Shown here: piece by piece, positions 10,639 to 40,194 of the stretch
Numbering within the stretch: the stretch's first letter is position 1
How the letters are laid out: every line of letters starts with the position of its first letter
Virus record (IMG/VR): IMGVR_UViG_3300012359_000004
Span: 1-56,404 of that record
Origin: a virus
Taxonomy: Duplodnaviria; Caudoviricetes
Direction: 5' to 3' (one strand)
DNA: 56,404 nt
Notes under the pieces: model-generated
The model's database searches: none
Seen by the model: only the letters and a program-made list of their open reading frames with translations
What the model was told of the DNA's origin: nothing
Program-made: the position numbers and the translations under genes

Positions 10639-11076
10639 TTAAGACAAATGTTTTTCGAGGTATTTTATCGCACTCTCTAAGCGGGTAAAGCTATCATTAG
10701 CAAAGCCCAACAGAGTATTACACTTTCGGCAAAGAAGCTCCCTTACTGTACCGCTATAATGACAATGATCAACTACAAGGTAATCTCCAGGTCCTGGCAG
10801 CACCCCACAAATGGCGCATCGTCCATTCTGTGCTTTAAGCATAGCAGCGTGATCATCAGGAGTTAACCCGTATTTACGTAAATGGCTAACATCTTTGTTA
10901 ACAGCAATAGTGTGCTGATTAGTCGGAGGTAAACAATCCCTAACAAGGGCAGTTTCTTCAGAGGCGGGTTGTATAAATTTAGCGCAAACACCACAGCAAA
11001 AAGCTTTTGGTGACATAGTACGCATTTTCCCACAGTTGCGACATAAGCGTTTTGGGCGTGGTACAATACCATTCAT
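10639..11076 (-). CDS. endonuclease VII-type homing endonuclease
   Basis: YGLT..QNGRCAIC..VDHCH..VRELLCRKCNTLLG; ATG 11076 follows GGAG of the conserved leader. Confidence 0.9.
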   Translation of the reverse strand: MNGIVPRPKRLCRNCGKMRTMSPKAFCCGVCAKFIQPASEETALVRDCLPPTNQHTIAVNKDVSHLRKYGLTPDDHAAMLKAQNGRCAICGVLPGPGDYLVVDHCHYSGTVRELLCRKCNTLLGFANDSFTRLESAIKYLEKHLS

Positions 11077-11160
11077 GGCAAGCTCCAATCTTGTCATCGG
11101 CTCAGGGGTATGTCCAGTACCGCCTGAGCAAAACAATTTTTACGCCTCTATTATACCATA
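11074..11160 (-). promoter_or_regulatory. conserved endonuclease leader (promoter + structured RNA), copy D
   Basis: TGGTATAAT; GCTCAGG-C-GGTA[CTGGACA]TACC-CCTGAGC; ATGACAAG[ATTGGAG]CTTGCCAT. Confidence 0.8.
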
Positions 11161-11180
11161 ATCTAGCCTCTTGTGTATAT

Positions 11181-11246
11181 AGGTTAAGGTTTCTCAATAC
11201 GATTTCCCCACAATGACCCTTGCAGGTTAAGGTTTCTCAATGCGAT
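11181..11246 (+). repeat. two 23-nt direct repeats, period 43
   Basis: AGGTTAAGGTTTCTCAAT(A/G)CGAT at 11181 and 11224. Confidence 0.9.
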
Positions 11247-11409
11247 AGGTGAATTTTTTCACACTCCCCATTTTGGATAATCTTGGGTTACAATAAAACA
11301 GTGAGAAACGTGGTGAGTGTTTTCTACCGTGCAACTCCACCAAAGATTACAGTTTATTCATAATTGCTCAGAGTCCGCGAAATTGGTGAAAATTTGCGTA
11401 TAGTACCCC

Positions 11410-11438
11410 TTGCAATTGATTACAGGGTATGTTACTAT
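11410..11438 (+). promoter_or_regulatory. early rightward promoter with overlapping imperfect inverted repeat
   Basis: TTGCAA-17-TACTAT; TACCC..GGGTA flanks. Confidence 0.55.
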
Positions 11439-11503
11439 CTTAATGCTGTTTAATATATTGTTATCTCAAATAACATATCGTAAAATCAAAGGGGGTCTGC
11501 GCT

Positions 11504-11704
11504 ATGAGCGCGCCAGCGATGACGGAAAAACTCTATACCATAGAAGAGGTCGCTAAAATTCTTGAGCTTCACCGGAATACCGTGAAAAAGAGAATTGAAG
11601 AGGGTGATCTTGTAGCCATCAAGGTTGGACGTGAATACAGAATCCGACCGCGAGACCTTGAAGATTTTATGGAGCGTAACCAGTACAGGCCAAAAGGCCA
11701 ATAA
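11504..11704 (+). CDS. excisionase/HTH_17 family DNA-binding protein
   Basis: LYTIEEVAKILELHRNTV..I..G.L.AIKVGREYRI. Confidence 0.9.
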   Translation: MSAPAMTEKLYTIEEVAKILELHRNTVKKRIEEGDLVAIKVGREYRIRPRDLEDFMERNQYRPKGQ

Positions 11705-12009
11705 ACGTGAAAGCGCCCGCCTCCCTGTCTGATTGCATTCCGACGTTTGGGAAACGAGCGCTGTAGTTCCAAGCAAAGAATACCATCTGCGTGAGGCAGT
11801 GTCAAGATTTGCTTGGTGGAAAGGGGTACCACTGTGTCATCTACAGACACAAAAATTGGCGGGAATAAACCCGCCACGAGTCCATCGCTCCAACCACGGT
11901 GTGACACCGTGTTACACAAGGACGATATTGTATATACAACAAACAACGAGTTTAGGCCGGTTTCTGTTGTCCATTGTAGCACATGGTGTAGCAGTCTGCG
12001 AGGTGAGTC

Positions 12010-12225
12010 ATGAACCGATTCACACCCGAAAGGCCGCCTCCACGAGACAAGCGCACTGTCGAGGAATTCAAACAGTTCCTCACGTGGGCGGGTAGTCCGT
12101 CCTATCCTGGGGTCTACATCCACCTGGCACGAGGCTGGTACCAGGGCCTACTCACCATCGAGGAAGGCCAGCGTATTGAAGCAGAGCGGCAGGTGTGGCA
12201 GTTCGTAGGGGTGCAACATGAATGA
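12010..12225 (+). CDS. hypothetical protein
   Basis: GAGGTGA RBS. Confidence 0.65.
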   Translation: MNRFTPERPPPRDKRTVEEFKQFLTWAGSPSYPGVYIHLARGWYQGLLTIEEGQRIEAERQVWQFVGVQHE

Positions 12226-12364
12226 GCCTGTTTACGGCGTTGCACCGGGCGCAACATACGACCCTGACATTGATCTGCTGTACGAGGATGACGATGAGGA
12301 CACAGTGAAGCGGGCAGCTATTGATAGTACGGTGAAGTTACGGCGCGTGGAGGTGGCAGTATGA
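12218..12364 (+). CDS. small acidic hypothetical protein (48 aa)
   Basis: MNEPVYGVAPG...; overlaps both neighbours. Confidence 0.55.
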   Translation: MNEPVYGVAPGATYDPDIDLLYEDDDEDTVKRAAIDSTVKLRRVEVAV

Positions 12365-12570
12365 GCAATCCAGGCAACTTAGGCCAGCGGTTCCGTATGT
12401 CGAAGCTGACCGGCGTAGAGGTCAAAGGCGGGAAGGTTGTGTTCCATCTCGAATGTGGGCACGACTACAGCAGTACTCCGCTATGGGGTACGCCTGAAGA
12501 GTCAGCAGAGCGAGCACAGGCCCGGATTGGCAAGCGGGAGCGATGCGACAAATGTATGGAGAGATCATGA
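12361..12570 (+). CDS. small zinc-binding protein
   Basis: LECGH..RCDKC; GGAGG RBS. Confidence 0.65.
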   Translation: MSNPGNLGQRFRMSKLTGVEVKGGKVVFHLECGHDYSSTPLWGTPEESAERAQARIGKRERCDKCMERS

Positions 12571-13178: not shown

Positions 13179-13289
13179 CTCCTCTCTCGACTCATCATGC
13201 TCTCCGTGTGGCTCTTTCTGCTGGCCTGCTACATCGGATTTGTCTACGTGCTGTGGCTGGCGGTCACGACACCCATTCCGGGGAATTGA
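13173..13289 (+). CDS. small membrane protein (38 aa); start supplied by the element end
   Basis: MTLLSRLIMLSVWLFLLACYIGFVYVLWLAV.. Confidence 0.55.
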   Translation: MTLLSRLIMLSVWLFLLACYIGFVYVLWLAVTTPIPGN

Positions 13290-13297
13290 GGGAAGCC

Positions 13298-13534
13298 ATG
13301 AACGATAACCCCGACGTCTACAACGTCACCATCCAGCATGTGGCCATTGCCGCGTCTACGATTGGCTTCGATGTGCTACGTAAGCCAGGATACTACATCA
13401 TCCTCACCGATGCTCTGCCCGGCTATGGAGACGCGGTAAAGTTCCCTGATAGCCCACATGGCTACACAGAGGCCCTGGCATGGATACGGAAAATAGCGGG
13501 CGATGAGGAGGCCAATCCTGAGCAAGCAGTTTGA
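13298..13534 (+). CDS. hypothetical protein
   Basis: GAGGGA RBS. Confidence 0.6.
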   Translation: MNDNPDVYNVTIQHVAIAASTIGFDVLRKPGYYIILTDALPGYGDAVKFPDSPHGYTEALAWIRKIAGDEEANPEQAV

Positions 13535-13874
13535 CCGCAAATTATTCAGTGCCTCTATCCAGGCAAAGTTGCTCGAGTCGCAGCTTAGCTTGCGAGAAGC
13601 GGCAAAGGAATCTGGTATCAGTCTGGCTACCCTGAGTCGCCTCAGCAATGGCAAAGTACCGGATATCGATCATTTCGTGGCCGTGGTTCGCTGGCTCCAA
13701 ATCGATGCGAATGCGTTTATGGATGCACCGCGGGGAGCAATCCTGACCAATCGTGAAAAGTGGGCGTGGCTCTATCTGTGCCTGCGAGACTTGGATGTAC
13801 CGGAAGAAGTGATTCAAGCCATAATCACCGTCATCAAAGTGGTAAAGCGGGGAAGCGAGGCCAATCGTGACTGA
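13503..13874 (+). CDS. XRE/Cro-family HTH transcriptional regulator
   Basis: LSLREAAKESGISLATLSRLSNGKVPD. Confidence 0.88.
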   Translation: MRRPILSKQFDRKLFSASIQAKLLESQLSLREAAKESGISLATLSRLSNGKVPDIDHFVAVVRWLQIDANAFMDAPRGAILTNREKWAWLYLCLRDLDVPEEVIQAIITVIKVVKRGSEANRD

Positions 13875-13879: not shown

Positions 13880-14215
13880 GTCAGGAACCCTATAGCAAAA
13901 GCTATGGGTTTGCAAACTGTTGAGCATTTTAGCTCAGGCTGTTACAAGCCCTACCTGACCAGACCCAGCCAGGAAGAGATATCACCCATATCTCTTTATC
14001 GGGCTACGATACCGGCAATGTCAAAGAACGTACCAATGGGTGCGAGGCCAGCCCATTGCTCTATAACTCTCGAATTAACCAGGTTCATAGTAGGGGTTAA
14101 AGCCAGTGTTCGAGAGATGTGCAGACCGGTATCATCGTCGAGGCCACCATTACCCGGGAAACCGGTGGGAGTTACCGGCCTACTCCATATCAACAAGGCC
14201 GCCCCGCAAGGGGAG
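13880..14215 (+). ncRNA. IscB/IsrB-type omegaRNA (HEARO-like) scaffold with no iscB gene
   Basis: GTCAGG..CCTGACCAGAC P1, end hairpin AACCCTATAGC[AAAA]GCTATGGGTT, GGCTACGATACCGG..CCGGTATC, CAATGGGTGC..AGCCCATTG, CTCTCGAA..TTCGAGAG, GTCGAGGCCACCATTACC, CCGG[GAAA]CCGG, CCCC[GCAA]GGGG in the order typical of HEARO. Confidence 0.85.
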
Positions 14216-14298
14216 ATGAAAGGTAGCGAGGCATGAGTGATGTAGTTCCCAGTGGGAGTGTGTTGGTATGGAATATAAAGACGACGTATAGTTTCCAC

Positions 14299-14327
14299 TT
14301 GACCGAATTGTATCAATGTGGTATGCT
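14299..14327 (+). promoter_or_regulatory. promoter of the replication operon
   Basis: TTGACC-17-TATGCT, extended -10 TG. Confidence 0.65.
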
Positions 14328-14365
14328 TACAGTGGCATATCGTACGTATGCCAAAGGAGGTTCTA

Positions 14366-14563
14366 GTGATCACTATGGACTATTTAACCGCAGAGGAGGT
14401 AGCTACAGAGCTTCGATATTCGGTCACAACTGTAAAACGGATGCTTCGTACCAACGAAATGCCAGGCTACAAGTTTGGCGGCGAATGGCGCATCGACCGG
14501 GCCGAGTACGAAGAGTGGAAGCGACAACGCAAAAATCAATATCAGAAACCAGCAGAGGATTAA
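14366..14563 (+). CDS. HTH_17/excisionase-family DNA-binding protein
   Basis: YLTAEEVATELRYSVTTVKRML..MPGYKFGGEWRI; GGAGG RBS. Confidence 0.88.
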   Translation: MITMDYLTAEEVATELRYSVTTVKRMLRTNEMPGYKFGGEWRIDRAEYEEWKRQRKNQYQKPAED

Positions 14564-14706
14564 CTGACCTTCTGGTTTTTCCAGTAGCGCACGTGCTGCA
14601 AAGAAGTCTCCACACACCTATGCAGCACGCTGTGTAGCACTACCTCTATGCATTTTTGCACATGTTGGGCAAGGATGCAAGGGGTAGGGAGAAAGCGAGA
14701 TAACAA

Positions 14707-15210: not shown

Positions 15211-16554
15211 ATGAGTAAACGGGATGATTTTACTTTCAACGGTTTTGAACCGGCTAATACCACGCCGGTGCCAGATATTCTTTTTGATGAACTTTTATCA
15301 CAACTCACTGGGGCAGAACTCAAGGTACTCCTCTACATCATCAGGCGTACCAGGGGCTTCAAGAAAGACACCGATGCTATTTCTTTAAGCCAATTTCAAA
15401 AAGGCATCATCACGAAAGAGAGAAAACAGCTTGATAAAGGGTGTGGTGTAGGAGATCGTCAAACGATCATTGATGCCCTGGCTTCCCTAGAAAAGAAAAA
15501 ATGCATTGTGAGCGAGAAAACCAAGACAGTAAAAGGCGACAATGCTACGACGCTCTATCGCATTTTATTCAGTCAAGAGGTAGTGGGAAAAGCCTACCAC
15601 GGTAGTAGGGAAAAGCCTACCACGGTAGTGGGAAAAGCCTACCACCGTGGTAGGGAAAATGGCACTACCGTAGTTGGGAATTCCAACCCACAAGAAACAG
15701 TATTACAACAAACAGATTCACAAGAAACAGTATCACAAGAGAGTGTTACGCCCACCATTGCAGATATGCCAGCATGTGGCGCTAGCGCGCCAGCACCCTC
15801 TGCTTTGCCTCTTCAAGAAAAAACTGATAAGCAAGAGATACCGGTGACTTATGCTGATTGCCTTGCTTATCTCCAAGAGCATAACGCTCTCCCTCAAGGC
15901 GATGCCGTTCAGCAGATGACTCAGGCTCGCATACTTTACGCTTCTCAGCAGAAAGGACAAACCGATGGACATAGCCAGCTTCGTAGCACTCATCATGGTG
16001 CTGATTACCCTGATAGTGGCAGCGTTAGTCATCCTGGAGAAGCCGAAGGACAACGGATAGAACAGACACCCTCCTCCACGCCTGTTCAGGTTCTCCCCCC
16101 ACTTGCCACTTTGAGCAAGATGCCTGAACAGGCCGCGTTCATGGCACCTGCGGAACCGAAGCCGCGTGCAAAGGCAGCACCGAAAAAGCCCGTAGAGAAA
16201 CCAGCCGGGCCACCTGTCGCGCCTCCTGTGGACATGGAGTGGAGCACACGTAAATGCTTGCAATGGTTCGACTTCTGGCGTGGAGCTCCACTTATCGGCA
16301 AATTCAAGCTGATGCAGGCCTCCACGTGTGCCAAAGGACTGGCAGAGAACTATTCTGAAGCGCAGGTGCTCAGTGCGCGTACGGACATGGAAGCGGATGT
16401 GTACTGGATGGCTAGGGGTGGCTGTGATGTGTGCGATGTGGCGAATAACATTCACAAATATGTCAGGAAGCGCCAACTAACGATTGCGGAGAAAGCGAAA
16501 GACGCCGCGCCGGTGAAGATTACTCGTGAAATGTTGCACCAAAGGAAACCATGA
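15211..16554 (+). CDS. phage replication initiator (O-like winged helix)
   Basis: NTTPVPDILFD..LTGAELKVLLYIIRRTRGF..DAISLSQF; internal iterons; upstream of dnaB. Confidence 0.88.
   Translation: MSKRDDFTFNGFEPANTTPVPDILFDELLSQLTGAELKVLLYIIRRTRGFKKDTDAISLSQFQKGIITKERKQLDKGCGVGDRQTIIDALASLEKKKCIVSEKTKTVKGDNATTLYRILFSQEVVGKAYHGSREKPTTVVGKAYHRGRENGTTVVGNSNPQETVLQQTDSQETVSQESVTPTIADMPACGASAPAPSALPLQEKTDKQEIPVTYADCLAYLQEHNALPQGDAVQQMTQARILYASQQKGQTDGHSQLRSTHHGADYPDSGSVSHPGEAEGQRIEQTPSSTPVQVLPPLATLSKMPEQAAFMAPAEPKPRAKAAPKKPVEKPAGPPVAPPVDMEWSTRKCLQWFDFWRGAPLIGKFKLMQASTCAKGLAENYSEAQVLSARTDMEADVYWMARGGCDVCDVANNIHKYVRKRQLTIAEKAKDAAPVKITREMLHQRKP
15579..15740 (+). repeat. iterons / probable replication origin within the initiator gene
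   Basis: 3-5 copies of GGTAGT(A)GGGAAAAGCCTACCAC followed by A-rich 15-mers CACAAGAAACAGTAT. Confidence 0.85.
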
Positions 16555-17891
16555 TGACAGAGAAATGGGTACCGACCAACGTGGAGGCAGAAGAAAGCGT
16601 GCTTTCTCACCTGCTCAGTGCTCCACGCAAAATTACGGAAGTGGTAGACCGCTTATCCCCTGAGCACTTCTGTTCAGATCGTGCCAGCCGCATCTACCAA
16701 CTCATGGTGACGTTAGCGCATCAGGGGAAGGCATGTACCGTCTCTAACGTCTATGATGCCTGGGCAAGAATGTATGGCATGGATGATGAAGTCTACGACT
16801 TTCTTGAAGATCGCTATGGTCTTTTCTCAGCATTCATGACGCCCTTCGAGGACCAGGTAGAGAAGGTCATTCGCGTGCATACCATGCGCCGTCTCATCTC
16901 AGCCGCCCAGCACATCGCGGAAGTCGCCTACGCTCAGGACGACAATGCTATGGACGTGGCAGAACAACTCATTTACGATATTGCCAGGGGCGTAGATGGT
17001 GACACAGTGGCAACGCTGGCAGAGGTGAAACAGCGCTATATGCAGGAGTTTGAACAGCGCCGTGAAAACCTCCTCAATGGCATTGCCAACGGCATCCCGA
17101 CCGGCTTTCATGAGCTTGATACAATCCTGGGAGGACTCCAACCATCCAATCTCTATACCCTCGCAGCTCGCCCTAGCCTGGGTAAGACAGCCCTGGCTCT
17201 CAACATTGCCCTGTACATCGCTAGACATGCCCGCCGGTGCCTGTTCTTTAGCCTGGAAATGAGCGAGTCAGAATTATTCCAGCGCTTGCTAGCCATAGAA
17301 ACGCCCGTTGACCAATCGTTCTTGCGCGACGGCGATGTGAACGAGCAGGAGTTGGAAGATATCCGCTACACGGCGAACGATCTGGCCAACCTGGATATGC
17401 TGATAGACGACCGGACATACACACTTGCGGGCATCTGTAGTAAGGCCCGGCGCGAACATGCCCGCAAACCGCTTAACCTCATTGTGGTTGATTATCTCCA
17501 ATTGATCGATACCGCCCCGGAGGGCCGAAGCAAGAACAAGATGCGCTATGAGGAGGTGGGCGAATTCTCGAAGCGATTGAAACGCCTGTCCAAAGAGTTG
17601 AAAGTGCCGGTCATTGCCATAGCTCAGTTAAACCGCGACGTAGAAAGCCGACAAAGCCCAAAGCCGCGTATGTCTGATTTAGGCGAAAGTGGCAAACTTG
17701 AGCAGGATATGGACGTTGTGGCCTTCGTCTACTGCGAGGAGGCAGAGATCAAGAAAAAGGAGAATTGCGAACCGTATCAGGTGCATGTCAATGTCGCAAA
17801 ACATCGAAACGGGCGACTGGGGGACGTAGCCTTGTGGTTCAGGCCCCGGATCACTAAATTTCAGGACGAGGAACCGGACTATGACGAGTGA
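16551..17891 (+). CDS. dnaB: replicative DNA helicase
   Basis: AARPSLGKT, FSLEM, IVVDYLQL, AQLNR, SGKLEQD, KHRNG. Confidence 0.97.
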   Translation: MMTEKWVPTNVEAEESVLSHLLSAPRKITEVVDRLSPEHFCSDRASRIYQLMVTLAHQGKACTVSNVYDAWARMYGMDDEVYDFLEDRYGLFSAFMTPFEDQVEKVIRVHTMRRLISAAQHIAEVAYAQDDNAMDVAEQLIYDIARGVDGDTVATLAEVKQRYMQEFEQRRENLLNGIANGIPTGFHELDTILGGLQPSNLYTLAARPSLGKTALALNIALYIARHARRCLFFSLEMSESELFQRLLAIETPVDQSFLRDGDVNEQELEDIRYTANDLANLDMLIDDRTYTLAGICSKARREHARKPLNLIVVDYLQLIDTAPEGRSKNKMRYEEVGEFSKRLKRLSKELKVPVIAIAQLNRDVESRQSPKPRMSDLGESGKLEQDMDVVAFVYCEEAEIKKKENCEPYQVHVNVAKHRNGRLGDVALWFRPRITKFQDEEPDYDE

Positions 17892-28244: not shown

Positions 28245-28280
28245 AGAGCCTCCTACCATAGAGCGTAGGAGGCTCTTTCT
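28245..28280. terminator. intrinsic terminator between convergent genes
   Basis: AGAGCCTCCTAC/GTAGGAGGCTCT then TTCT. Confidence 0.75.
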
Positions 28281-28461
28281 ACGCCGTCTTGCCCCGCTTC
28301 TTTGATAACTGAGCAGTTGGACTTTCAGCAGTCAGTCGCACTGCCAATCTCACCGCATCGGAGGCCGTACTGAGCCCGTACTTGTCCATGATCGTGGCGA
28401 TAGCCTGGGTGTCCACCGCGCCGAGATAATGTGTTTTGCGTTGATAGTTGAGTTTGAGCAT
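28279..28461 (-). CDS. small ribbon-helix-helix-like protein
   Basis: RKTHYL..D..AIATIMDKYGLSTASDAVRLAVR; AGGAGG RBS. Confidence 0.7.
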   Translation of the reverse strand: MLKLNYQRKTHYLGAVDTQAIATIMDKYGLSTASDAVRLAVRLTAESPTAQLSKKRGKTA

Positions 28462-28624
28462 CGTCCCTCCCTTTCGACATGTACACAAGGTCATGCTGAA
28501 AGTATACATGATGACACCCGGAAATGGGACGTTGTGGGACATTGCGAGTGGGATTTGTTGGGGAAATGTTGGGTGTCATGACGGGGACTATGGAGAGACG
28601 GTATTGTCTCTCCATAGCAGACTT

Positions 28625-29203
28625 TTAGAATAATTCTTGTTGGTTGCCTTTAGTTTTATTTACCTTCTTTACAACACGCAATTCCAGTTGCGTGTCTGTT
28701 GATGCCAGCAATCTTAGAGAAAACCGAATTACATCGCTATCACTCGATAGCCCATAGCGATGTTTGATCGTGTCAATATCTCTATCACTCTGCATGCTAC
28801 TATAAAATGTTCTTCGGGCAATCTGAGACCGATGGGCAAATGAATTTGTATCAAAGGGTTTGGGTTGCGCTCGTTCACCAGACTGATTATTGATAACATT
28901 GGTGATAGAATGTCCTTGCTCTTTATAATAATTCATCCAATATATTTCGCGCATCTCTCCCTGATCTCTTGGCACTTCTTCAACAATGCGCATTTCTGGC
29001 ACCAGCCCCCTTTTTATCAGGCCTTGAATCCAATCCCCTTTTTGAGATCGTGTATGATCGTGCATGTGAGCATTAAATCTACTTTCTGGATGGAGAGATT
29101 TGCCGATGTAGCGTACTTGTTCGGTTTCAGGATCAACAAGTGCATAGATGGAGATGAGGGTTTTGTAATTGCGGTCAGGGGAATTTAATGGTAAACTGTT
29201 CAC
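28625..29203 (-). CDS. GIY-YIG endonuclease fused to an RHH-like domain
   Basis: SIYALVDP..RYIGKS..R..H..REIYW..TN; C-terminus similar to 28279-28461. Confidence 0.85.
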   Translation of the reverse strand: MNSLPLNSPDRNYKTLISIYALVDPETEQVRYIGKSLHPESRFNAHMHDHTRSQKGDWIQGLIKRGLVPEMRIVEEVPRDQGEMREIYWMNYYKEQGHSITNVINNQSGERAQPKPFDTNSFAHRSQIARRTFYSSMQSDRDIDTIKHRYGLSSDSDVIRFSLRLLASTDTQLELRVVKKVNKTKGNQQELF

Positions 29204-29312
29204 AGGCTAGCCTCCTAACGGGTTAGTCTCACGCCTGGGGGTGCTTCCAACACCGTCCAGGCACACCAATATTTTAGGTTTCTATTATACCATATTCCCC
29301 TTATCTGAGCAA
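29201..29312 (-). promoter_or_regulatory. conserved endonuclease leader, copy A
   Basis: TTGCTC-17-TATAAT; GCCTGG-AC-GGTG[TTGGAAG]CACC-C-CCAGGC; ACTAACC..TAGGAGGCTAGC. Confidence 0.8.
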
Positions 29313-29331
29313 GAAAAATGCCCTTAAATCC

Positions 29332-29360
29332 TTGCAAAATGCGTGACGTTGTGTCATACT
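29332..29360 (+). promoter_or_regulatory. promoter of recombinase 2
   Basis: TTGCAA-17-CATACT. Confidence 0.55.
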
Positions 29361-29363
29361 TCT

Positions 29364-29391
29364 ATTTGAACTAATTCTCGTTAGATGTAAT
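29364..29391. other. dif/xrs-like 28-bp recombination site
   Basis: ATTTGAACTAA-TTCTCG-TTAGATGTAAT: 11-6-11, arms 8/11 inverted, TAA/TTA inner edges. Confidence 0.55.
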
Positions 29392-29413
29392 ACTAGCAAG
29401 CAGGTAGGAAGAT

Positions 29414-30382
29414 ATGGACGGGCAAGTTTTACCAGTTCCGAACGATAAGACAAGCATTGACTTTGCTGTTACCAAATGGCTGGAAGCCAGCTTTTCACAT
29501 TCTCAGAGTTTGCGCACTATTGGTGAATACAAGGATACTCTTGAGTCTTTTCGTTCCTACCTTCACCTCGATGGACTTGATCTGTTGAGCAATCCCGATC
29601 TGGTTTCATCTCATGCTCAGACCTGGGCTAGGATACGTTCAGATAAATCACGGCGTCCGGGCCCAGTCTCAGGAGCTACGTATAATTTGCGATTGGCGGC
29701 CATAAGCAGCTTCTATCAGTACTGCATACAGTCTTTGCGTTACAAGGGTGAAAATCCGATTAGCCGCCTCAAAAAGACAAAGGTTCAGAAGTATGGAAAA
29801 GCCCGCTCTCTGAACCGAGGGGAAGTTATACGGTTACTTAAAAAGATTGATCGCAGTACGCTTGAAGGACAACGTGATTATGTGCTCCTACAAGTTGGTT
29901 TGAATACAGGTAGACGGGCACAAGAATTAGCGTCTCTGCGATGGCGACATGTTGAGATGGAAGGTGAGTGTGTGACTTTGACTTTTGAAGAGTGCAAAGG
30001 GCATAAAACAATGCGTGATACCTTGGCTGCCAGCCTTTCTAAAGCGTTGCTTCGGTATCTGCGTACCGTCTATGATGGACTACACAATATGGAACCTGAG
30101 AGCCCCCTTTGGGTTTCTTTCAGCGACCGCAATAAGGGCAAAGGAATAGGGATGCAAACCATTGCCGATATCTGTGAGGCTCGCTTAGGAGTTTCAACGG
30201 TGCATAGTATGCGCCATACCTTCGCCCATACTATGCAAGAAGCTGGGGCCAGCATTACAGATATTCAGTCTCGTTTAGGGCATGAAAGCCTGGCAACAAC
30301 AGGGATTTATCTAGCCCGCTTAAAAAGCGCTTATAATCCCTATGCTGAGAAGATAGCGGGTATGTTTGGACTCGAAGAGTAA
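29414..30382 (+). CDS. tyrosine recombinase 2 (Xer-like)
   Basis: TGRRAQEL, CKG, HSMRHTFA, LGHESLATTGIY. Confidence 0.95.
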   Translation: MDGQVLPVPNDKTSIDFAVTKWLEASFSHSQSLRTIGEYKDTLESFRSYLHLDGLDLLSNPDLVSSHAQTWARIRSDKSRRPGPVSGATYNLRLAAISSFYQYCIQSLRYKGENPISRLKKTKVQKYGKARSLNRGEVIRLLKKIDRSTLEGQRDYVLLQVGLNTGRRAQELASLRWRHVEMEGECVTLTFEECKGHKTMRDTLAASLSKALLRYLRTVYDGLHNMEPESPLWVSFSDRNKGKGIGMQTIADICEARLGVSTVHSMRHTFAHTMQEAGASITDIQSRLGHESLATTGIYLARLKSAYNPYAEKIAGMFGLEE

Positions 30383-30396: not shown

Positions 30397-31323
30397 ATGG
30401 ATTGGAGAGACATTACAACCAGGGACGCCTATCTTGCAGGCTCTCTAGCCGCTCGTTCTTGGGAACCGTGGGACGAGACGACCGCAGAGAGCGAAGCCGA
30501 TAGCGTCGGGCTATCAGGTGAACGCCGTGCCGACTTCCTGCGAGGCTGGCACGATGAGCGAGTGGAACAGGACAAAGAGCGCGACCCGAAAGAGGTCATG
30601 CTGCGAGAGTATGACGAGATGGCAACTGGTTGGGACAAAGGCGACCCTGCTGCAAGATGAAGGGAAGGGAATGATGGACGAACAAACCAAACTATCAAAG
30701 GATGCATGGGACATCCTTGAACTCGTGCGCGTCAGAAAGTATATTCCAAAGAGTCGCGTTCAAGAGCAATGGAGTCCCGAGTCTGTTCTGGCATTGCGCG
30801 AATTGCTCTTAGCTGGATTAATTGAAGAGATAGCCGTCTATCAGCTCAAGGAAGAAAGAGATGCACGACCGCACGAAACGCGATGAGGATGTAGCCGCAG
30901 AATTGGACTATATACGCGCCAATATAGAGCTTATGCGTCACGCCAATGATCCGCTTGATACGCCGCTAGACGTGAAAGTACAGGCATTCACGATAGAGCG
31001 ATTGAAGCGCTACATGGCCGATGTCAGGTATACTGGCAGCATGGACAGCCTGATAAATGATATCCTCAAGGATTGGCTGTATGGAGAGGGGGAATAAAGC
31101 AATGGCAGAATTTCAAGGCAGTTGGATAGAAGCCCTGCAAAATGATAAAATCCCTACCCATATCTATCATTGGCAGAATGGGATGGTTATGTGTTTCAAC
31201 GCCAAAGGAGAGCAGATACCAGAATACCAGGGAACATATGAGGAAGCAATCAAAGCTATACCTCAAGAATATCACTACTTGATTGAGGACAAGGTATGGC
31301 CTGGGACGTGGCTCACTACGTAG
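30397..31323 (+). other. four small hypothetical genes (30397-30660, 30671-30886, 30861-31097, 31102-31323)
   Basis: packed ORFs with RBSs downstream of recombinase 2. Confidence 0.65.
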
Positions 31324-33861: not shown

Positions 33862-34140
33862 ATGAGTATAGAGCGGGATACGTACTTTCAAGATTACGCT
33901 GAGCAAGTTTGGCGCGATCTTATTGAAATCATAGGTGAGCCTTTGACCAATTCTGCTGCAAACTTTGAAGAGTTTCATCGGGAAAACAATAAGATCAAGC
34001 TGATTATCGCTCAAAACACCTATGATCTGATGCAGCAAGCCACTTTATCTATTAGTGACCAACAGACGCGGCAAGGCGGCGTTACATTGCATCCAAATGC
34101 GATGCTTCGAGTAGTGCCAGGTGTCCTACTTAACAAGTAA
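33862..34140 (+). CDS. hypothetical protein, paralog of 33361-33675
   Basis: RDTYFQDYA..IAQNTYDL. Confidence 0.75.
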   Translation: MSIERDTYFQDYAEQVWRDLIEIIGEPLTNSAANFEEFHRENNKIKLIIAQNTYDLMQQATLSISDQQTRQGGVTLHPNAMLRVVPGVLLNK

Positions 34141-34149
34141 TTTTTCCTC

Positions 34150-35112
34150 CTACACCTTCGCCACAATCGCCTTAATCGCGTTCATGGCATCGACCAGCGC
34201 TTGTGAGGTTTGTGGCTGCTGGGCAAGCTGTTGACGCAGCTTTGCTAGTTCAGGGTCTACACCAGGGCTGCCTGGCTCGTACAAAGCCACAGGCGAGACT
34301 TTCTGATCTTTCCACTGTCTGACACCAAACTGATAGAACTGGATCACCCAATTTTGATTGATGTAAATCTCGTTGCTCATGGGACGCCCCAGCACATCAA
34401 ACCCGCATAAGCCCTTGTTGCCCTCAGATTTGTAATTACCTAAAAGAGCATATTGAATGATCTTCCCTTGCCATGGCCCGCCAGTGTCCGTACATTCCCA
34501 CTGATGCGGGTTGAGCTCCTTGAAGTGTTTTTTGATTTCAGGATTATTGATATCGATAATCACGGTTTCCTCCTGTTGTGCTATTCGTTGGACGGTCCAG
34601 ATTTGTTTGAAGCGTAGCAGGGAAGCCCATTCAGCATCGCTTTTTTCGATAGGGCGAGCTATATACGGGTCCATCGCTGTTAGATGCCCAGGACCCTCTT
34701 CGAACCATGGGCATACGTGAGTCCAGCCCAATACATCACGTTGATAAGCGCTACAATACGGGTCGGGTATTGTGAAGATGACCGGGACCTGAGCTTGAAC
34801 ATATTTGTGGGCTTGTTGGACCAGGTAGCCAGGTTCACCGTCCAGCGAGGAGAGCTTGAAGCCTCGTGATTGGCAGAAGGGAATATATCTCGCTGCTGCT
34901 GTGCCATCATTGCGGTACGCTTCCCCATAAACATTGTCCTTCAGGAGGTCCGGATTCAGTTCCTGGTCCCATTGGTGCTTGCCCTCATACCAGAGCATAG
35001 CCGCTCCAATCGAGGCGGGCACACATTCCCAGCCAGCATCCTCTGAAGGGCGATTGTCTGAAGTTATCGTGGTGAGTTGGCTCACCATGGGAAAATTAGC
35101 TAATACTGCCAT
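34150..35112 (-). CDS. probable endolysin, C39-like cysteine peptidase
   Basis: SQL..CVPASIGAAM..THV..MDPY (Q/C/H/D pattern); position next to TM genes. Confidence 0.7.
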   Translation of the reverse strand: MAVLANFPMVSQLTTITSDNRPSEDAGWECVPASIGAAMLWYEGKHQWDQELNPDLLKDNVYGEAYRNDGTAAARYIPFCQSRGFKLSSLDGEPGYLVQQAHKYVQAQVPVIFTIPDPYCSAYQRDVLGWTHVCPWFEEGPGHLTAMDPYIARPIEKSDAEWASLLRFKQIWTVQRIAQQEETVIIDINNPEIKKHFKELNPHQWECTDTGGPWQGKIIQYALLGNYKSEGNKGLCGFDVLGRPMSNEIYINQNWVIQFYQFGVRQWKDQKVSPVALYEPGSPGVDPELAKLRQQLAQQPQTSQALVDAMNAIKAIVAKV

Positions 35113-35114
35113 AA

Positions 35115-35225
35115 ACTAGCCTTTCAAGCGGATTTATGGTATAATAAGAACACCAAAAATGGTGTTGCCCTGGCGATGCTGGAAACATCCCAAGGCGTGA
35201 TAGCAAAGTTAGGAGCTTTACTATG
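35115..35225 (+). promoter_or_regulatory. conserved endonuclease leader, copy C
   Basis: TGGTATAAT; GCCCTGG-C-GATG[CTGGAAA]CATC-CCAAGGC; ATAGCAAAG[TTAGGAG]CTTTACTAT. Confidence 0.8.
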
Positions 35226-36191
35226 AAACCTATTATACCTCAAAAACATTGTTCCAAATGTCAACAAGAAAAACCTCTTACGAGAGAGTACTTTCATTGT
35301 GACAAATACCAAAAAGATGGCTTTACTAGCCGATGTATTGTTTGTCGTACTCCACCTAAAGTTATTCGCCTTCCTAAAGATACTGCCCCTGAAGGATATA
35401 AAACTTGTGATACGTGCAATCAGGTTTATCTTGCTACTACTGAGTTTTTTCATAGAGCACCGGACACTTATGACAGACTGCGATCTCGATGCAAAATATG
35501 TCAGAAAGAACATGATCGCCTTCGATACGCTCAAATGAAAGAGCATCCACTTAAAGATATGATTCCAAGCCATTTGACTTGCCCTATGTGTGAGCAATGT
35601 AAGCCAATTGCTCTTTTTCATAAAAGCCCAAAGGGGAAATATGGCTTGGCTGCCTACTGTAAGATTTGTGCTGCTCAAGTTGGCAAGCGTAGCCTTGCCA
35701 AACCAGAAGTAAAAGCTAAAGCAGACAAGCGTAGAAAAGACTATTATTATGAACATCAGGAAGAACAAAAGCAAAGCCGCCAGCAATGGTATCAAGCCAA
35801 TAGGGAACGCGTTCTTGAGGGAGACCACCAGTTCAGAAAAGAACATCCTGAAATCCTTGCTGAAAGATGGCAACGTTGGGCAAAGACTGAGCGCGGGTAT
35901 GAGCATTGTCGTGTACGTGTGCGCAATCGTCATGCTCGCAGTAAGGGAGCGCAAGGGAATTATACCTTTAACGATATTCAAAAGCAGTATGCAAATCAGA
36001 AGGGCAAATGCTACTATTGTCGGGTTAAGATAAAAAATCACACAAGCGCTTACCATATTGAGCATGTAATACCCCTCTCTCGTGGAGGGACTAATGATAT
36101 GAGCAATATTGTTCTTGCTTGTCCTTCCTGTAATCTGAGCAAAAGCAACAAGCTTCCCCATGAATGGCCCCAGGGAAACCGCTTGCTCTAA
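35223..36191 (+). CDS. HNH homing endonuclease with three CxxC..CxxC zinc modules
   Basis: CYYC..HIEHVIPLSRGGTN..NIVLACPSCNLSK. Confidence 0.93.
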   Translation: MKPIIPQKHCSKCQQEKPLTREYFHCDKYQKDGFTSRCIVCRTPPKVIRLPKDTAPEGYKTCDTCNQVYLATTEFFHRAPDTYDRLRSRCKICQKEHDRLRYAQMKEHPLKDMIPSHLTCPMCEQCKPIALFHKSPKGKYGLAAYCKICAAQVGKRSLAKPEVKAKADKRRKDYYYEHQEEQKQSRQQWYQANRERVLEGDHQFRKEHPEILAERWQRWAKTERGYEHCRVRVRNRHARSKGAQGNYTFNDIQKQYANQKGKCYYCRVKIKNHTSAYHIEHVIPLSRGGTNDMSNIVLACPSCNLSKSNKLPHEWPQGNRLL

Positions 36192-36213
36192 AACGCTCAT
36201 AAACCCCTCCTTT

Positions 36214-36552
36214 CTAATGAATCGGATTGACGGTAATCGTATCAATATTCATCGTTTTCGGGCCATTCGAGAAGATGATCGACAGATACACCGTCCACGT
36301 TCCCACTGTGTCAATATCTGCCGCTACCGGTTGATAGACCACAATGCTATTGGTCCCATCGGTATCCGTTTGTACGCTAAATGTCCCTCCGTTGCACACT
36401 TTCAGCACAGGCGGATTGGCCTGAGCATTGTACAGGTGCAGTGTAAAGTTGGCATTGGTAAAGCCGCTCAGATTGGGTCTTACTCCATTAATCAAGCTGA
36501 TCGGGAACCGAAATGGTGTCCCAGTATCGCCCTGGAAGGTCGTCATGCTCAT
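36214..36552 (-). CDS. BppU N-terminal-like virion protein
   Basis: QGDTGTP..Y.P.A.D.DTVGTW pattern. Confidence 0.6.
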   Translation of the reverse strand: MSMTTFQGDTGTPFRFPISLINGVRPNLSGFTNANFTLHLYNAQANPPVLKVCNGGTFSVQTDTDGTNSIVVYQPVAADIDTVGTWTVYLSIIFSNGPKTMNIDTITVNPIH

Positions 36553-38174
36553 TAGGGATTGGCCTCCTTCATGGGTAAATTGCCGTCGCTGGCCGTCATG
36601 GGTAAATTGCCGTCTGAAGCCGTAAGCGGCATCGTCTTGGGATAAATCGTCACATTGGCGGGCACAATGAAAAAGGTGGTGCGCGTGTTCGTGCGCGTCT
36701 GTGCGCGTATCTTGAATGCTGCACGAGCGTTGGTCTGTAGCGTGTTGAGTGGTGAGGAAAGCCACGACGGATGCGCCGTCATGTAATCGGTAATGGCTTT
36801 CCACGACGAGCCTGTTCCCGTTCCCAAGCTTGGACTGACCGACGCTGCTTGCAGTGGCTTCTGGTAATCAATCGTCCATATGCCGAGTTTCCCGACTGGA
36901 TTCGGATTTTGCGTGCGCAGCGCATCAAACATAGCCGTGAAGTAGGGTGCTCGTGATTGGTGCTTCGCGTCGGTGGTACCGTCGGTAATCATCACGGCCC
37001 ACTGCACGGTCTCCCCGTTGGCATGGGTCAAGTTTGATGAGGTTGAAACATCCTTCTCAATATTTCTCTGATCGATGGTGAACGCGGTGCCTGTTCGTGT
37101 ACTACAGTGCATCCATTCATTGGCAACGATCAGATAGAAGTCGTTGCCTGTCGTCGGAAAACCTGTACCAGCAGCCACATTGAGTGTGAATGGCGTGGCC
37201 TGCGTGGAACTAATCGTCCCTGAAAGCGTCGTCGTCACGAGCGAGGTAGGATTGCCCACAACATCCCCAACATTCCATCCGGTTTCCAGTGCATAAATCG
37301 GGGTTGTCTTCTGGCCTGTTGGCGCGTAGGATTGCAGTGCGTTCCCGATGAGCGTCAGTTCATTGGCAATACTCACCCCCGTCGTATCCACCGTTGAGGT
37401 TGGATCAGGCGACAATCTACCGGCATAATAGCAGTGCGCATCCACGAAATCAGGGAAGTTTGCCGCCGTAATGCCAGAAAAGACGTTCTGGCACCAGTTT
37501 GAGATATGCGTGCTGGAATTCGTAGGCGTCTTGCGCACCGCACAAATACCCATGAGTAGCGCGGGATTGATTGCGCGTACTGCTGGTATGGATGCATTGG
37601 CTACAGCCGGTAATGCCCGGCCTGTACGACCTGCCACCGTGTCAAATTCCTCATTGCCTATTTGGATGCTTTCCACGTGGCCATGGCCGTGATTGCCATC
37701 GTAGCGCTGCGCTAGGTGCTGTGCAAAGCGCGAGTAGGCTTGTGGACCTCCGAGCGTGCCCGTCGCCAGCCCGACGTTGGTTCCTGAATCATCAAAGATC
37801 AAATAGTTGTCCGGCGCATCCTGAATGGTCAGCATGACATTCAAGCCAGAGATGGCGTTGAAGGCCGCTATAGCATTATCCATCGTCTGAACGGCTGATT
37901 TGGTCGGATCAGTATTGCCTACCGGCCCATCCCAGTAGATCGGCGTATTGGTCGGCGGCTCACTTACCGCGCCGCCCGCGGGATTGGTCTCGTAGTTGCG
38001 CCAACGGAACTGATAGCGCACCCACAGCCCGCCGCCGATGATGTTATTGAGCGCTGTGAGGTCGGTAATCAGTGCAGCAGGTAGCGCTGGGTACGTAGGG
38101 TTGCTGACCGGTTTCGCACCATCCTGATAATAGGTGTAGACGTAGGGGCTATCTATCGTTGGGGTATATGGCAT
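36552..38174 (-). CDS. virion-associated clan GH-A glycoside hydrolase
   Basis: WVRYQFRW, QIGNEEF acid/base motif, DFVDAHCY, ALETGWN nucleophile motif. Confidence 0.75.
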   Translation of the reverse strand: MPYTPTIDSPYVYTYYQDGAKPVSNPTYPALPAALITDLTALNNIIGGGLWVRYQFRWRNYETNPAGGAVSEPPTNTPIYWDGPVGNTDPTKSAVQTMDNAIAAFNAISGLNVMLTIQDAPDNYLIFDDSGTNVGLATGTLGGPQAYSRFAQHLAQRYDGNHGHGHVESIQIGNEEFDTVAGRTGRALPAVANASIPAVRAINPALLMGICAVRKTPTNSSTHISNWCQNVFSGITAANFPDFVDAHCYYAGRLSPDPTSTVDTTGVSIANELTLIGNALQSYAPTGQKTTPIYALETGWNVGDVVGNPTSLVTTTLSGTISSTQATPFTLNVAAGTGFPTTGNDFYLIVANEWMHCSTRTGTAFTIDQRNIEKDVSTSSNLTHANGETVQWAVMITDGTTDAKHQSRAPYFTAMFDALRTQNPNPVGKLGIWTIDYQKPLQAASVSPSLGTGTGSSWKAITDYMTAHPSWLSSPLNTLQTNARAAFKIRAQTRTNTRTTFFIVPANVTIYPKTMPLTASDGNLPMTASDGNLPMKEANP

Positions 38175-38189
38175 GTCTCCTCTTCCTCC

Positions 38190-38840
38190 CTACACCGATT
38201 GATAGGCGAGGTTGACTACGCACGCCTGTGGATTGTTCGTAAAACTCTGCCCCGATGTGACTTCGGCTACCGCCCAAAACTGCACTTGTGCCCCGGATGC
38301 AATATTGCCCATGGCAAGCGAAGCGGCAAACCCCGCCGTCGCACTCGTTTGCGAGAGCAATGTATCTGTGTAGCCCTGGCTGGTGCTGGGGGATACATTG
38401 GACGTGCTCATGGTCACTGTTTGCGCCTTCTGGTCGCCCGCATTGTAGAGGTAGAAGTTCTGAACATTGACGCCGATCCCGTTTGGCGTGGCATTGGTGC
38501 CATCGTTCAAAACACCGTTTACCTGATCGCCAACTGGAAGAGAATAATACCATTCGTTCACGACACAGTTATTCGGGTGAAGGTGAGCCAGGGGCGTCAG
38601 CAGATTGAGCGTTGTGCTCGCTACGCCAGGCGTAGGCGTAGCGTAGGCTATCGTCTCATTGCCATTGGTCGCATCGATAATGTCGATGGTGCCATAGCCC
38701 GGAAGCGCGTTTGCCACCACAATCGATGTCGCCCCAGCAGCGTAGCCGCCGGTGTGGTTGATCGTGGTGGCGATGTCGGTATTGTGCGCCAGCTCTACGG
38801 TATGCAAATTGTCTGAATAGATTTTCAGGAATGCACTCAT
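38190..38840 (-). CDS. virion structural protein
   Basis: T/A/G/N-rich, in tail module. Confidence 0.7.
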   Translation of the reverse strand: MSAFLKIYSDNLHTVELAHNTDIATTINHTGGYAAGATSIVVANALPGYGTIDIIDATNGNETIAYATPTPGVASTTLNLLTPLAHLHPNNCVVNEWYYSLPVGDQVNGVLNDGTNATPNGIGVNVQNFYLYNAGDQKAQTVTMSTSNVSPSTSQGYTDTLLSQTSATAGFAASLAMGNIASGAQVQFWAVAEVTSGQSFTNNPQACVVNLAYQSV

Positions 38841-39353
38841 CTACAGTCCTCCCTGGATAATCGCGGAGAGCGACGGCATGAGATTGGAAGCCGCTGTCCC
38901 GCCTGTTGTCGAGGGGAGAACAGGTGTGGTTGTGCCGGTACTGTTGTTCGTGGCCGTCATTGCGCGGGTAATGGTGATTGTCCCTGCCACTAATCCGCCT
39001 GCCCGCCCGTAGAGGTCGGTGCTGTTTCCTGGTGTTAAGGCCATATAGTATTTGCCAGGCGATAGGTTGAGAGCCGTAGCAAAGTTGACGCTTTGGTCAA
39101 GGTTGGCCGTGTTGACCGTCGCGCCGATATTGGCCAGGAGATTGCCGCCGCTATCATAAATCCCTGCATCCGTCTTCCCTGTGGCCGTGGCCGCCATACG
39201 CCAGCGCATTCCTAGAATGGTTGTTGGGCTGTTTAACTCGAAGGCCCACAAGTAGACGGTGTTGGCCACAAGCACCGCGTTCCCGTTGCCCGCAATGGCC
39301 GAGATACCTTCAACAATCCAAGGCGTTGGCATGGGAGGTAGAAACAAAGGCAT
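38841..39353 (-). CDS. virion structural protein
   Basis: GIYDSGGNLLA..LSPGKYY beta-sandwich pattern. Confidence 0.7.
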   Translation of the reverse strand: MPLFLPPMPTPWIVEGISAIAGNGNAVLVANTVYLWAFELNSPTTILGMRWRMAATATGKTDAGIYDSGGNLLANIGATVNTANLDQSVNFATALNLSPGKYYMALTPGNSTDLYGRAGGLVAGTITITRAMTATNNSTGTTTPVLPSTTGGTAASNLMPSLSAIIQGGL

Positions 39354-39367
39354 GATTGGCTCCTCTC

Positions 39368-40087
39368 TTATGTAAGCTCTTCTAAGTAGGTGATAAGGGC
39401 TTTCAGGTGCTCAGTACTGTCCTGAACCATCCCCAAAGCCACATTACATTTATGGCAAAGCAGACCGCGAACCTTGCCCGTATCATGATCGTGGTCAACG
39501 TGGTAACGCTCTCTTCTCCCATGTGGAGGCCCTTTGCATACCTTGCACACTCCACCTTGTACCTCAAGCATAGCGTCATATTCTGCACTGGTTATCCCAT
39601 AGAGCCTTTGTAGGCTTTTATTTCGTTGGTGTGCAGGATTTGATGATGGGTACTTCGTCCCTTTTACATATGGGCGATATGGGCGTGTTTCACTAAGGCA
39701 TTGCTTACAACTGGAAGCCACACCTACACTTCTTCCCGACCTTTTTGTGAAATCTGAAAGAGGCTTCGGTTGATGGCATCTTGAGCATTCTTTCTTTATA
39801 TCAAGAGTTACAAGACACTGTATGCATGTATTTCTGTCGAGTTTAGTCCTTGTCCTGGGAAATTCTGAGAGAGGCTTCATTTCATGACAGTATAAACAGC
39901 ATTTTTCCTTTGGAGCGGCAACGCACTGCTTACACTGGGAAGCAACGCCTATCTTGCGGCCCTTTCTCTTATGGAAATCTGAGAAGGGCTTCACCTTACC
40001 ACATTTTGAACAAGGTTTTACCTTCTGAGGGGAATCAATGAAAGAGAGTTCTTGCTGAAAAAGGCCATGAGGTGATATGGTATTCAC
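39368..40087 (-). CDS. endonuclease VII-type homing endonuclease with zinc modules
   Basis: YGIT..QGGVCKVC..HVDHDHDTGKVRGLLCHKCNVALG; GTG start after AGGAGG. Confidence 0.92.
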   Translation of the reverse strand: MNTISPHGLFQQELSFIDSPQKVKPCSKCGKVKPFSDFHKRKGRKIGVASQCKQCVAAPKEKCCLYCHEMKPLSEFPRTRTKLDRNTCIQCLVTLDIKKECSRCHQPKPLSDFTKRSGRSVGVASSCKQCLSETRPYRPYVKGTKYPSSNPAHQRNKSLQRLYGITSAEYDAMLEVQGGVCKVCKGPPHGRRERYHVDHDHDTGKVRGLLCHKCNVALGMVQDSTEHLKALITYLEELT

Positions 40088-40194
40088 GATGAACCTCCTA
40101 CAAAGGTTTATCCGGCCTGGGGGTGTTAGCGCACCCGCCAGGTACACAATATTTCTAATGTGCTTATCATACCATACATCGGCTTTAGAAGCAA
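40085..40194 (-). promoter_or_regulatory. conserved endonuclease leader, copy B
   Basis: TTGCTT-17-TATGAT; CCTGG-C-GGGTG[CGCTAA]CACCC-CCAGG; GATAAACCT[TTGTAGG]AGGTTCATC. Confidence 0.8.

Follow-up and report, generated by a model that had tools for sequence, protein, structure and literature searches.

The stretch of DNA analysed here (the window) is the complete 56,404-bp virus record IMGVR_UViG_3300012359_000004, which has direct terminal repeats. Four sites in it, c1 to c4, carry copies of one element, a promoter followed by approximately 80 nt of structured sequence, and each copy precedes one nuclease gene; the window holds only these four. Free-standing homing endonucleases account for some of the commonest selfish genes of phages and, to our knowledge, the way in which they spare their carrier is largely unknown outside T4-like phages. 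The initial annotation of the window took the element for a structured leader of the nuclease mRNAs. The comparison of its two strands presented here points instead to a small antisense RNA lying over the start of each nuclease gene.

At c1, the gene on the minus strand (10639-11076) encodes a 145-aa protein of the Endonuclease VII family (Endonuclease_7, E-value 3e-22). The extended -10 element of its promoter, TATGGTATAAT, identified by reading the sequence and by a pattern count, lies at 11150-11160 on the same strand and is followed by hairpin 1 (11101-11128; on the sense strand 6 bp, a bulged C, 4 bp and a 7-nt loop) and hairpin 2 (11075-11097), in which the AU of the AUG codon is paired. 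The c2 gene (28625-29203, minus strand; 192 aa) has its extended -10 at 29284-29294 on the minus strand, hairpin 1 at 29234-29261 and hairpin 2 at 29204-29230. The c3 copy lies on the plus strand and comprises an extended -10 (35135-35145), a palindrome spanning the sense transcription start (35149-35166), hairpin 1 (35168-35195) and hairpin 2 (35200-35224). Its gene (35223-36191, plus strand) encodes a 322-aa HNH endonuclease with N-terminal zinc-finger-like repeats (HNH, E-value 3e-12). At c4, the extended -10 TATGGTATGAT (40166-40176, minus strand), hairpin 1 (40116-40142) and hairpin 2 (40088-40112) precede a minus-strand gene (39368-40087) for a 239-aa protein with a Stc1-like zinc finger and an Endonuclease VII domain (Stc1 and Endonuclease_7, E-value 6.5e-27). 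The two Endonuclease VII genes and the HNH gene had been named as such in the initial annotation; the GIY-YIG nuclease that it placed at c2 has a weak match only (E-value 0.0047, 17.6 bits, under the Pfam cut-off of 22.6), and this protein has no PHROG match.

The string TATGGTATRAT occurs exactly four times in the window, once at each site, in agreement with the extended -10 first described as common to them. With up to one mismatch there are seven matches against 1.15 expected, and none of 100 shuffles reached seven. Aligned over the region between the -10 and codon 2, the latter included, the four copies have a mean column identity of 70-76%, and the covariance model R1, built from them, recovers all four with E-values of 2e-13 to 9e-12, the next window match having an E-value of 3.5; the four sites with the layout initially described are thus all present. 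A second covariance model, R2, which is an antisense model built mostly from copies of other phages, finds exactly c1-c4 in the window (E-values 1.6e-13 to 3.8e-4). The next R2 match (31053-31117, minus strand; 14.7 bits, E-value 0.05) is probably due to chance, because a start codon is absent at the position implied by the model.

Hairpin 1 has the expected bulged C in c1, c3 and c4 (5-6 bp, the bulge, 4-5 bp and a 6-7-nt loop), and c2 departs from this description with an A.C apposition and an additional C. Hairpin 2 was found in all four copies as first outlined, with an A.C mismatch and the start codon paired. On the mRNA the Shine-Dalgarno sequence (SD) of each copy lies inside the loop of hairpin 2 and is therefore not sequestered. 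The loop of hairpin 1, which had been likened to a T-loop, is 6 or 7 nt long and takes at least 27 different sequences among 131 unique relatives of the element; a T-loop-like protein site is therefore unlikely, and mimicry of an anticodon loop or T-loop was rejected on the same grounds.

The departures from pairing have a direction. At the upper-stem free positions of hairpin 1, the 131 relatives read on the sense strand show 114 Watson-Crick pairs of eight kinds, 17 A.C appositions and no G.U pair. The A-C mismatch of hairpin 2 and a C.A in the lower stem of c3 run in the same strand direction, and the two sense A.C appositions in hairpin 2 of c2 are likewise G.U on the antisense strand. Since a sense A.C equals a G.U wobble on the opposite strand, the antisense strand was tested, with an alignment (A5) of 119 antisense sequences and 18 base pairs specified by hand; the antisense counterparts of the two hairpins are referred to as hairpins 1' and 2'. 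In A5, 96.4% of the cells are paired, compared with 84.9% after shuffling (0 of 500 shuffles as high) and 31-50% with the partners slid. Changes on both sides were detected in 16 of the 18 pairs, which upholds the earlier claim of one covarying, conserved element. The antisense cells include 201 G.U and 17 A.C (the latter being G.U on the sense strand), and pairing is therefore 96.4% on the antisense strand versus 87.6% on the sense strand. In 94 of 119 sequences a U.G occupies one pair of hairpin 2', the one initially described as an A-C mismatch.

Predicted folding gives the same preference. Minimum free energy (MFE) is lower on the antisense strand in 117 of the 129 copies found by DNA patterns, by 3.7 kcal/mol on average (Wilcoxon p 1e-19), and the MFE folds of these copies contain 313 G.U pairs on the antisense versus 84 on the sense strand. 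All twelve copies found independently of the patterns (four from the window, loci L007 and L048, and six from named phages) also have the lower antisense MFE, by 2.3-8.9 kcal/mol. For matched segments of the window, shuffling gave antisense z-scores of -6.3, -4.0, -4.6 and -3.6, one two-hairpin fold being common to all four, against -2.6, -2.6, -2.2 and -2.4 on the sense strand, where the folds are discordant. Thus, the selected structure is best read as that of the antisense strand and not as a sense-strand leader.

A promoter signal for such a transcript is present inside the nuclease genes. Among the first 30 coding nucleotides of 129 copies aligned at their predicted start codons, A8 (100 of 129), T12 (100 of 129) and A13 (102 of 129) alone are informative, whichever amino acids are encoded. 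On the opposite strand these three positions spell TAnnnT, the -10 consensus. Antisense TAnnnT occurs exactly at +13 to +8 in 95 of the 129 copies and within 3 nt of that place in 106, over a background of 0.15 per position with a maximum of 2. The low-GC copies of the window have full or extended antisense -10 elements, read from the sequence: TGGTACAAT in codons 4-6 of the c1 gene (11059-11067, plus strand), TGGTAAACT in codons 3-5 at c2 (29189-29197, plus strand), TATAAT in codons 4-5 of the HNH gene at c3 (35232-35237, minus strand) and TGATATGGT in codons 3-5 at c4 (40073-40081, plus strand). The location of this -10 predicts a transcription start 6-7 nt further on, facing the start codon at the base of hairpin 2', and the promoter is so placed that its predicted transcript would overlap the ribosome-binding site (RBS) and the start codon. 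On the sense strand, TAnnnT is found 5' of hairpin 1 in 74 of the 129 copies, its distance varying from copy to copy; the interval from hairpin 1 to the start shows no enrichment of it, with at most 4 of 129 copies at any position from -39 to +159.

The other end of the predicted RNA carries terminator-like features. In the high-GC copies, the 10 nt past hairpin 1' are 50% T versus 20% T in the remaining element; on the mRNA strand this T-rich tail is a purine-rich run 5' of hairpin 1. The palindrome of c3 reads on the minus strand as an additional, terminator-like hairpin followed by CTTATTAT, and the terminator scan calls a site on the antisense strand there; c4 has a weaker version of the hairpin and tail, for which the scan calls none. 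The predicted antisense RNAs of the window are 11074-11141 at c1 (plus strand; two hairpins, the 3' one being hairpin 1', and a CUCC in the loop of hairpin 2'; z-score -3.99, R2 22.5 bits), with a 5' end placed 6-7 nt past the -10 and a 3' end that is uncertain and has no clean terminator; 29204-29290 at c2 (plus strand; 3' end uncertain, z-score -4.57, R2 23.3 bits); 35140-35225 at c3 (minus strand; approximately 85 nt with three hairpins, a CUCCUAA loop in hairpin 2', R2 40.1 bits); and 40088-40170 at c4 (plus strand; z-score -3.63, R2 57.2 bits, E-value 1.6e-13). The c3 antisense fold has an energy of -34.2 kcal/mol (z-score -6.31), and 0 of 200 shuffles were equally good.

The initial annotation had proposed a sense-strand cis-regulatory leader, in which hairpin 1 would be an operator or stabiliser, hairpin 2 would occlude the start until a trans factor or a condition opened it, and the antisense features would be by-products. 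The hairpins do exist on the mRNA, RNAalifold predicts hairpin 1 in the four sense copies as the only helix, with 5 of 11 pairs compensatory, and the accessible part of PMC2988022 documents hairpins occluding the RBS or start as a control of T4-type homing endonucleases. However, the non-paired cells are A.C on the sense strand (201 vs 17), individual sense folds beat shuffles only marginally (z-scores -1.8 to -2.6) and their MFE structures differ among copies, the SD stays free in its loop, and the variability of the hairpin 1 loop speaks against a conserved protein site. The leader also leaves unexplained the fixed A8, T12 and A13 of the coding region and the T-rich complement 5' of hairpin 1, features that on the opposite strand make a -10 and a transcript tail. 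We consider this leader rather unlikely.

The element is probably a cis-antisense RNA of 60-85 nt that lies over the SD and start codon and restrains mobile nuclease genes. Each cassette would be self-contained, with two promoters face to face and approximately 90 bp apart. The outer promoter, of the TGnTATAAT type, would produce the nuclease mRNA, and the inner one, the opposite-strand -10 in nuclease codons 3-5, a 60-85-nt cis-antisense RNA starting opposite the start codon. This RNA would begin with hairpin 2', whose loop would contain or adjoin the SD complement, and would end at the G+C-rich hairpin 1' and a U-rich tail acting as a terminator. Its full complementarity to the SD, the start codon and the entire 5' untranslated region makes pairing with the mRNA the most likely outcome; the duplex would block ribosome binding and might become a substrate of RNase III. 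A potentially toxic nuclease would thereby be held at a low, copy-number-buffered level, and hairpin 2 of the mRNA itself may contribute to the control. As the module would need only the housekeeping RNA polymerase of the host, it could be portable with any nuclease family across phages of different phyla.

Several points weigh against this antisense RNA. The transcript, its ends and the repression of translation are all inferred from sequence. A strand richer in G and U folds better by composition alone, and the shuffled z-scores control for this in the four window copies only. The complement of the SD lies wholly within the predicted hairpin 2' loop in just 18-25 of 119 folds, although it does so in 4 of 4 window copies. 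Past hairpin 1', c1 and c2 have no canonical terminator but a U-run some 9 nt later, with no third hairpin predicted. The large samples were gathered by DNA patterns that fix much of hairpin 1, so that the fixed columns are invariant and high-GC relatives are favoured, and the pattern-independent copies are few (n = 12). A small number of copies precede genes other than nucleases (HATPase_c_2 in 2 and HTH in 1 of 34 open reading frames (ORFs) from bacterial genomes). Finally, the conserved linker CRUG is paired to C-RUG at the start codon, and where the start is GUG this pairing is better on the sense strand, the only one that accommodates GUG there (seen by eye in A5, uncounted). This part of the leader interpretation stands, and since the base of hairpin 2 pairs better on the sense strand at GUG starts, the mRNA fold may also be selected.

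If the antisense RNA acts in trans as well, nuclease and RNA would form a portable, host-independent unit resembling type I toxin-antitoxin or immunity systems, a tool of inter-phage competition or prophage addiction. We regard this extension as doubtful, if conceivable. Under it, a resident copy would act through the near-identical hairpin 1 region, which many cassettes share, to keep arriving copies or those of a co-infecting phage silent (multicopy inhibition), the nuclease would be set free once the RNA was lost or diluted, and the role in competition or addiction would reach across at least Actinomycetota, Cyanobacteria and other phyla. The strong conservation of hairpin 1, including its bulge, has a trans function as one possible explanation and recent spread by transfer as another.

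The same promoter and terminator signals could serve as a transcriptional insulator, shielding the host operon or restarting transcription of the neighbouring genes without any regulatory RNA. According to PMC2988022, the insertion of free-standing endonuclease genes can displace existing promoters or bring in new ones, and antisense transcripts can result; at c3, which is oriented opposite to its neighbours, the inner promoter is co-directional with the flanking operon and the terminator-like site lies on the strand of that operon. Such a function is nevertheless distinctly unlikely, as c1, c2 and c4 and the carriers in phages Malisha, Footloose and Twonlo are co-oriented with their neighbours, so that the inner promoter aims back into the preceding gene and would be stopped within approximately 70 nt. 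Hairpin 2', moreover, covaries and always exactly spans the SD and the start codon, which an insulator would not need.

The notion that the element belongs to mobile cassettes was borne out by comparison with a sister phage (G001), whose terminase is 69% identical to that of the window and which lacks the cassettes of c1 and c4. The c1 cassette (10613-11252), corresponding to 62 bp in the sister phage, comprises upstream DNA, the promoter, the element and the c1 ORF to approximately 25 nt beyond its stop codon; that of c4 (39327-40524) corresponds to 467 bp. A nuclease ORF among conserved genes that is present or absent between close relatives has, judged from these alignments, the makeup of a free-standing homing endonuclease-type cassette. 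The sister phage has one copy of the element, before a diverged HNH gene at the site equivalent to c3.

The position of the element at the upstream edge of cassettes would also suit a DNA-level signal, in which bottom-strand hairpins or cruciforms tolerating G.T might be recognised, nicked or recombined to mobilise the cassette; the G.T asymmetry fits a single-stranded DNA hairpin too, and Endonuclease VII enzymes are generally known to be structure-specific. We judge it very unlikely, as the c1 insertion boundary lies approximately 90 bp 5' of the promoter, away from the hairpins, the fixed TAnnnT 6-7 nt before hairpin 2' and the T-rich tail past hairpin 1' are transcription signals, and HNH, Endonuclease VII and T5orf172-type enzymes share the element despite their different substrates. 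Also rejected were a pseudoknot between the hairpin 1 loop and the coding region (CGCU with AGCG; by eye, AGCG occurs only where the protein has Gln/Lys-Arg, and many copies that share the loop lack it), antitermination signals of the BoxA/boxB or put-like kind, a ribozyme or a riboswitch (no Rfam support, no conserved single-stranded core, contrary strand asymmetry), and a further hairpin '0' in the mRNA leader, whose 5' arm is at or before the expected sense start and which is the antisense terminator-like hairpin in c3 and c4 only.

Two observations concern the cassette surroundings. An 18-nt direct repeat, ATTGAGAAACCTTAACCT, is present in two copies just 5' of the c1 promoter (11181-11198 and 11224-11241, minus-strand reading), within the stretch absent from the sister phage, and may be a cassette-edge mark or a binding site. 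The c2 gene and the integrase lie in a block of approximately 1.8 kb (28570-30379) with no DNA-level match to the similar-sized block at 50349-52117 of the sister phage, in which no copy of the element was detected.

The antisense module appears to travel with unrelated nuclease families, as the initial annotation had proposed for its leader. The 39 distinct ORFs downstream of copies in IMG/VR match HNH (PF01844; 15), HNH_3 (9), Endonuclease_7 (4) and MUG113/T5orf172 (4), and the 34 ORFs from bacterial genomes match HNH (16), HNH_3 (4), Endonuclease_7 (1) and T5orf172 (1); these are counts per Pfam family, which may overlap, and not a union. The majority of copies precede genes of the HNH, Endonuclease VII or T5orf172 type. 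One compact module thus seems to be reused by at least four nuclease families. The copies before genes other than nucleases, on bacterial contigs L207, L210 and L217 (HATPase_c_2 twice and HTH once), have lower scores (51-53 bits); L207 and L210 do not follow the A8/T12/A13 rule, and L217 retains A8 and A13. The hairpin 1 core may have been reused in another context at these loci. An N-terminal CxxC zinc-finger-like module (Stc1 or Lar-like PHROG matches) is common to the c3 HNH and c4 Endonuclease VII proteins and was also detected at L007, L008 and L048; the nuclease domains of c3 and c4 therefore seem to have been swapped behind one DNA-binding head.

Relatives of the element are widely distributed. 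The first search pattern, a 21-nt core of hairpin 1 common to c4 and contig G003 with two positions left free, matched 47 IMG/VR stretches and 36 contigs of GTDB species genomes. These bacterial contigs are mostly from Actinomycetota; others are labelled Planctomycetota, Polyangiaceae, 'delta proteobacterium', Gemmatimonadaceae and Conexibacter. A second, less strict pattern that left the loop free matched at least 120 IMG/VR stretches. A BLAST search of GenBank phages with one copy retrieved 10 records from seven phages: the Gordonia phages Malisha, Twonlo and EdmundFerry, Microbacterium phage Footloose, Mycobacterium phage LilSpotty, Rhodococcus phage REQ2 and Microcystis phage MinS1. In the annotated phage records the element lies immediately 5' of genes labelled endonuclease VII or HNH endonuclease, and several of these carriers, such as those of Malisha and Footloose, are wedged among tail genes. 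Gaps between tail genes are a typical location for free-standing homing endonuclease genes. Among distant homologues of the nucleases, the majority have no copy of the element, with an R1 match in 1 of 41 loci (37 of Endonuclease VII, 2 of HNH and 2 of terminase relatives); R2 adds one more Endonuclease VII locus (L022) to this protein-retrieved set.

Contig G003 has two copies of the element (28264-28358, L048, and 30553-30651, L047/L008), which precede two tandem HNH genes. Pairs of modules spaced 2-3 kb or less apart, with a separate nuclease gene behind each copy as in the window, were observed in several genomes, including this contig, L215 (3659-3744 and 6602-6680) and L237 (825-908 and 2573-2656). 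The element also implies different start codons for some deposited genes. The annotated start of LilSpotty gp83 (L100) is at position 1901 of the locus, and its coding sequence crosses the entire element, whereas the element-implied start is at 2057. For Malisha gp15 (L097) the annotated and implied starts are 2046 and 2061, and for Footloose gp16 (L098) 2101 and 2059.

The antisense element can thus serve as a ready marker of nuclease cassettes and correct the annotation of start codons in deposited phage genomes. Phages of Actinomycetota and of Microcystis carry the module, as do genomes with the labels Planctomycetota, Myxococcota and Gemmatimonadota, and antisense control using the host polymerase alone would account for the portability of the genes. 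It would constitute a small natural antisense switch, and it illustrates that a 'structured leader' can mirror the molecule truly under selection.

The gene set of the window is that of a temperate siphovirus and includes the large terminase (5274-6830, minus strand), a DnaB-like helicase (16551-17891, plus strand), an integrase (29414-30382, plus strand), the tape measure protein (46181-49384, minus strand) and the major head protein (53413-54483, minus strand); no tRNA genes were found in the window. The closest capsid homologues among bacterial genomes are from a Blastocatellia metagenome-assembled genome (54% identity) and Thermosporothrix hazakensis (48%), and a megablast search of positions 34000-42000 against GenBank phages gave no match. 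The sole Rfam match in the window at gathering thresholds is a full-length HEARO RNA ('HNH endonuclease-associated RNA and ORF' according to Rfam) at 13880-14153 on the plus strand (100 bits versus a gathering score of 83), which is unrelated to the four-copy element. Short ORFs without PHROG matches overlap or follow it (13904-14236, 110 aa; 14233-14637, 134 aa), and the ORF just 5' of it (13503-13874) shows a weak match to a transcriptional repressor family.

The claim that the element belongs to no characterised Rfam family held up. In Rfam 15, no family matches it on either strand when the whole window is searched at gathering thresholds; the c3 region at E-values up to 10 gave four chance-level matches (2.6-6.8), and eight carrier loci at E-values up to 1 gave only tRNA and one weak small-RNA match, all of them elsewhere. 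The Rfam models of sar, RNA-OUT, C4 and HEARO do not match the element. No description of it was found in full-text literature, a search that leaves a prior account in subscription journals or supplements possible, and a 12-mer of hairpin 1 occurs in no paper of the literature searched.

In the antisense RNAs IS10 RNA-OUT, P22 sar and SymR, pairing covers the RBS and start region of the target mRNA, which is the arrangement predicted here. A close parallel is RNA-OUT/RNA-IN of IS10/Tn10, where a mobile element curbs its own potentially harmful enzyme by means of facing promoters, and an outward promoter located a short way into the ORF from its 5' end produces a stem-loop antisense RNA of approximately 70 nt over the start codon and RBS. 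However, the present element has no sequence or Rfam kinship with RNA-OUT, is associated with several nuclease families and not with a transposase, and has two or three hairpins. The type I toxin-antitoxin pair SymR/SymE is similar in that a cis-antisense RNA overlaps the SD and start of the gene for a nucleic acid-damaging product; the 'toxins' here are ordinary HNH, Endonuclease VII and GIY-YIG-type nucleases of phage cassettes, and the likeness is one of gene architecture only. P22 sar, an RNA mentioned in PMC6582537, is a small phage cis-antisense RNA with two stem-loops over the ribosome-binding region of the ant mRNA; the same paper reports a 'Sar-like' RNA from a prophage of Mycobacterium mucogenicum. 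In contrast to sar, whose Rfam model matches neither the window nor the eight carrier loci, the present family would target a nuclease in a mobile cassette and not an antirepressor, and it is found in phages of several phyla.

Like the present cassettes, free-standing homing endonuclease genes of the T4 type come with a promoter of their own, and RNA structure around their translation start restricts expression. In I-TevI, segB and mobE the RBS is hidden by a hairpin, and a late promoter within the hairpin provides a translatable transcript (PMC2988022, in its accessible part). In contrast, the element described here has its SD in a loop, no sense promoter within the hairpin, and a conserved promoter on the opposite strand. 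The same portion of PMC2988022 treats antisense transcripts solely as a potential by-product of endonuclease insertion. Judging from the features compared here, the element would follow a known principle, the cis-antisense control of a mobile element's own enzyme, tied in this case to nuclease cassettes of multiple families across phyla.

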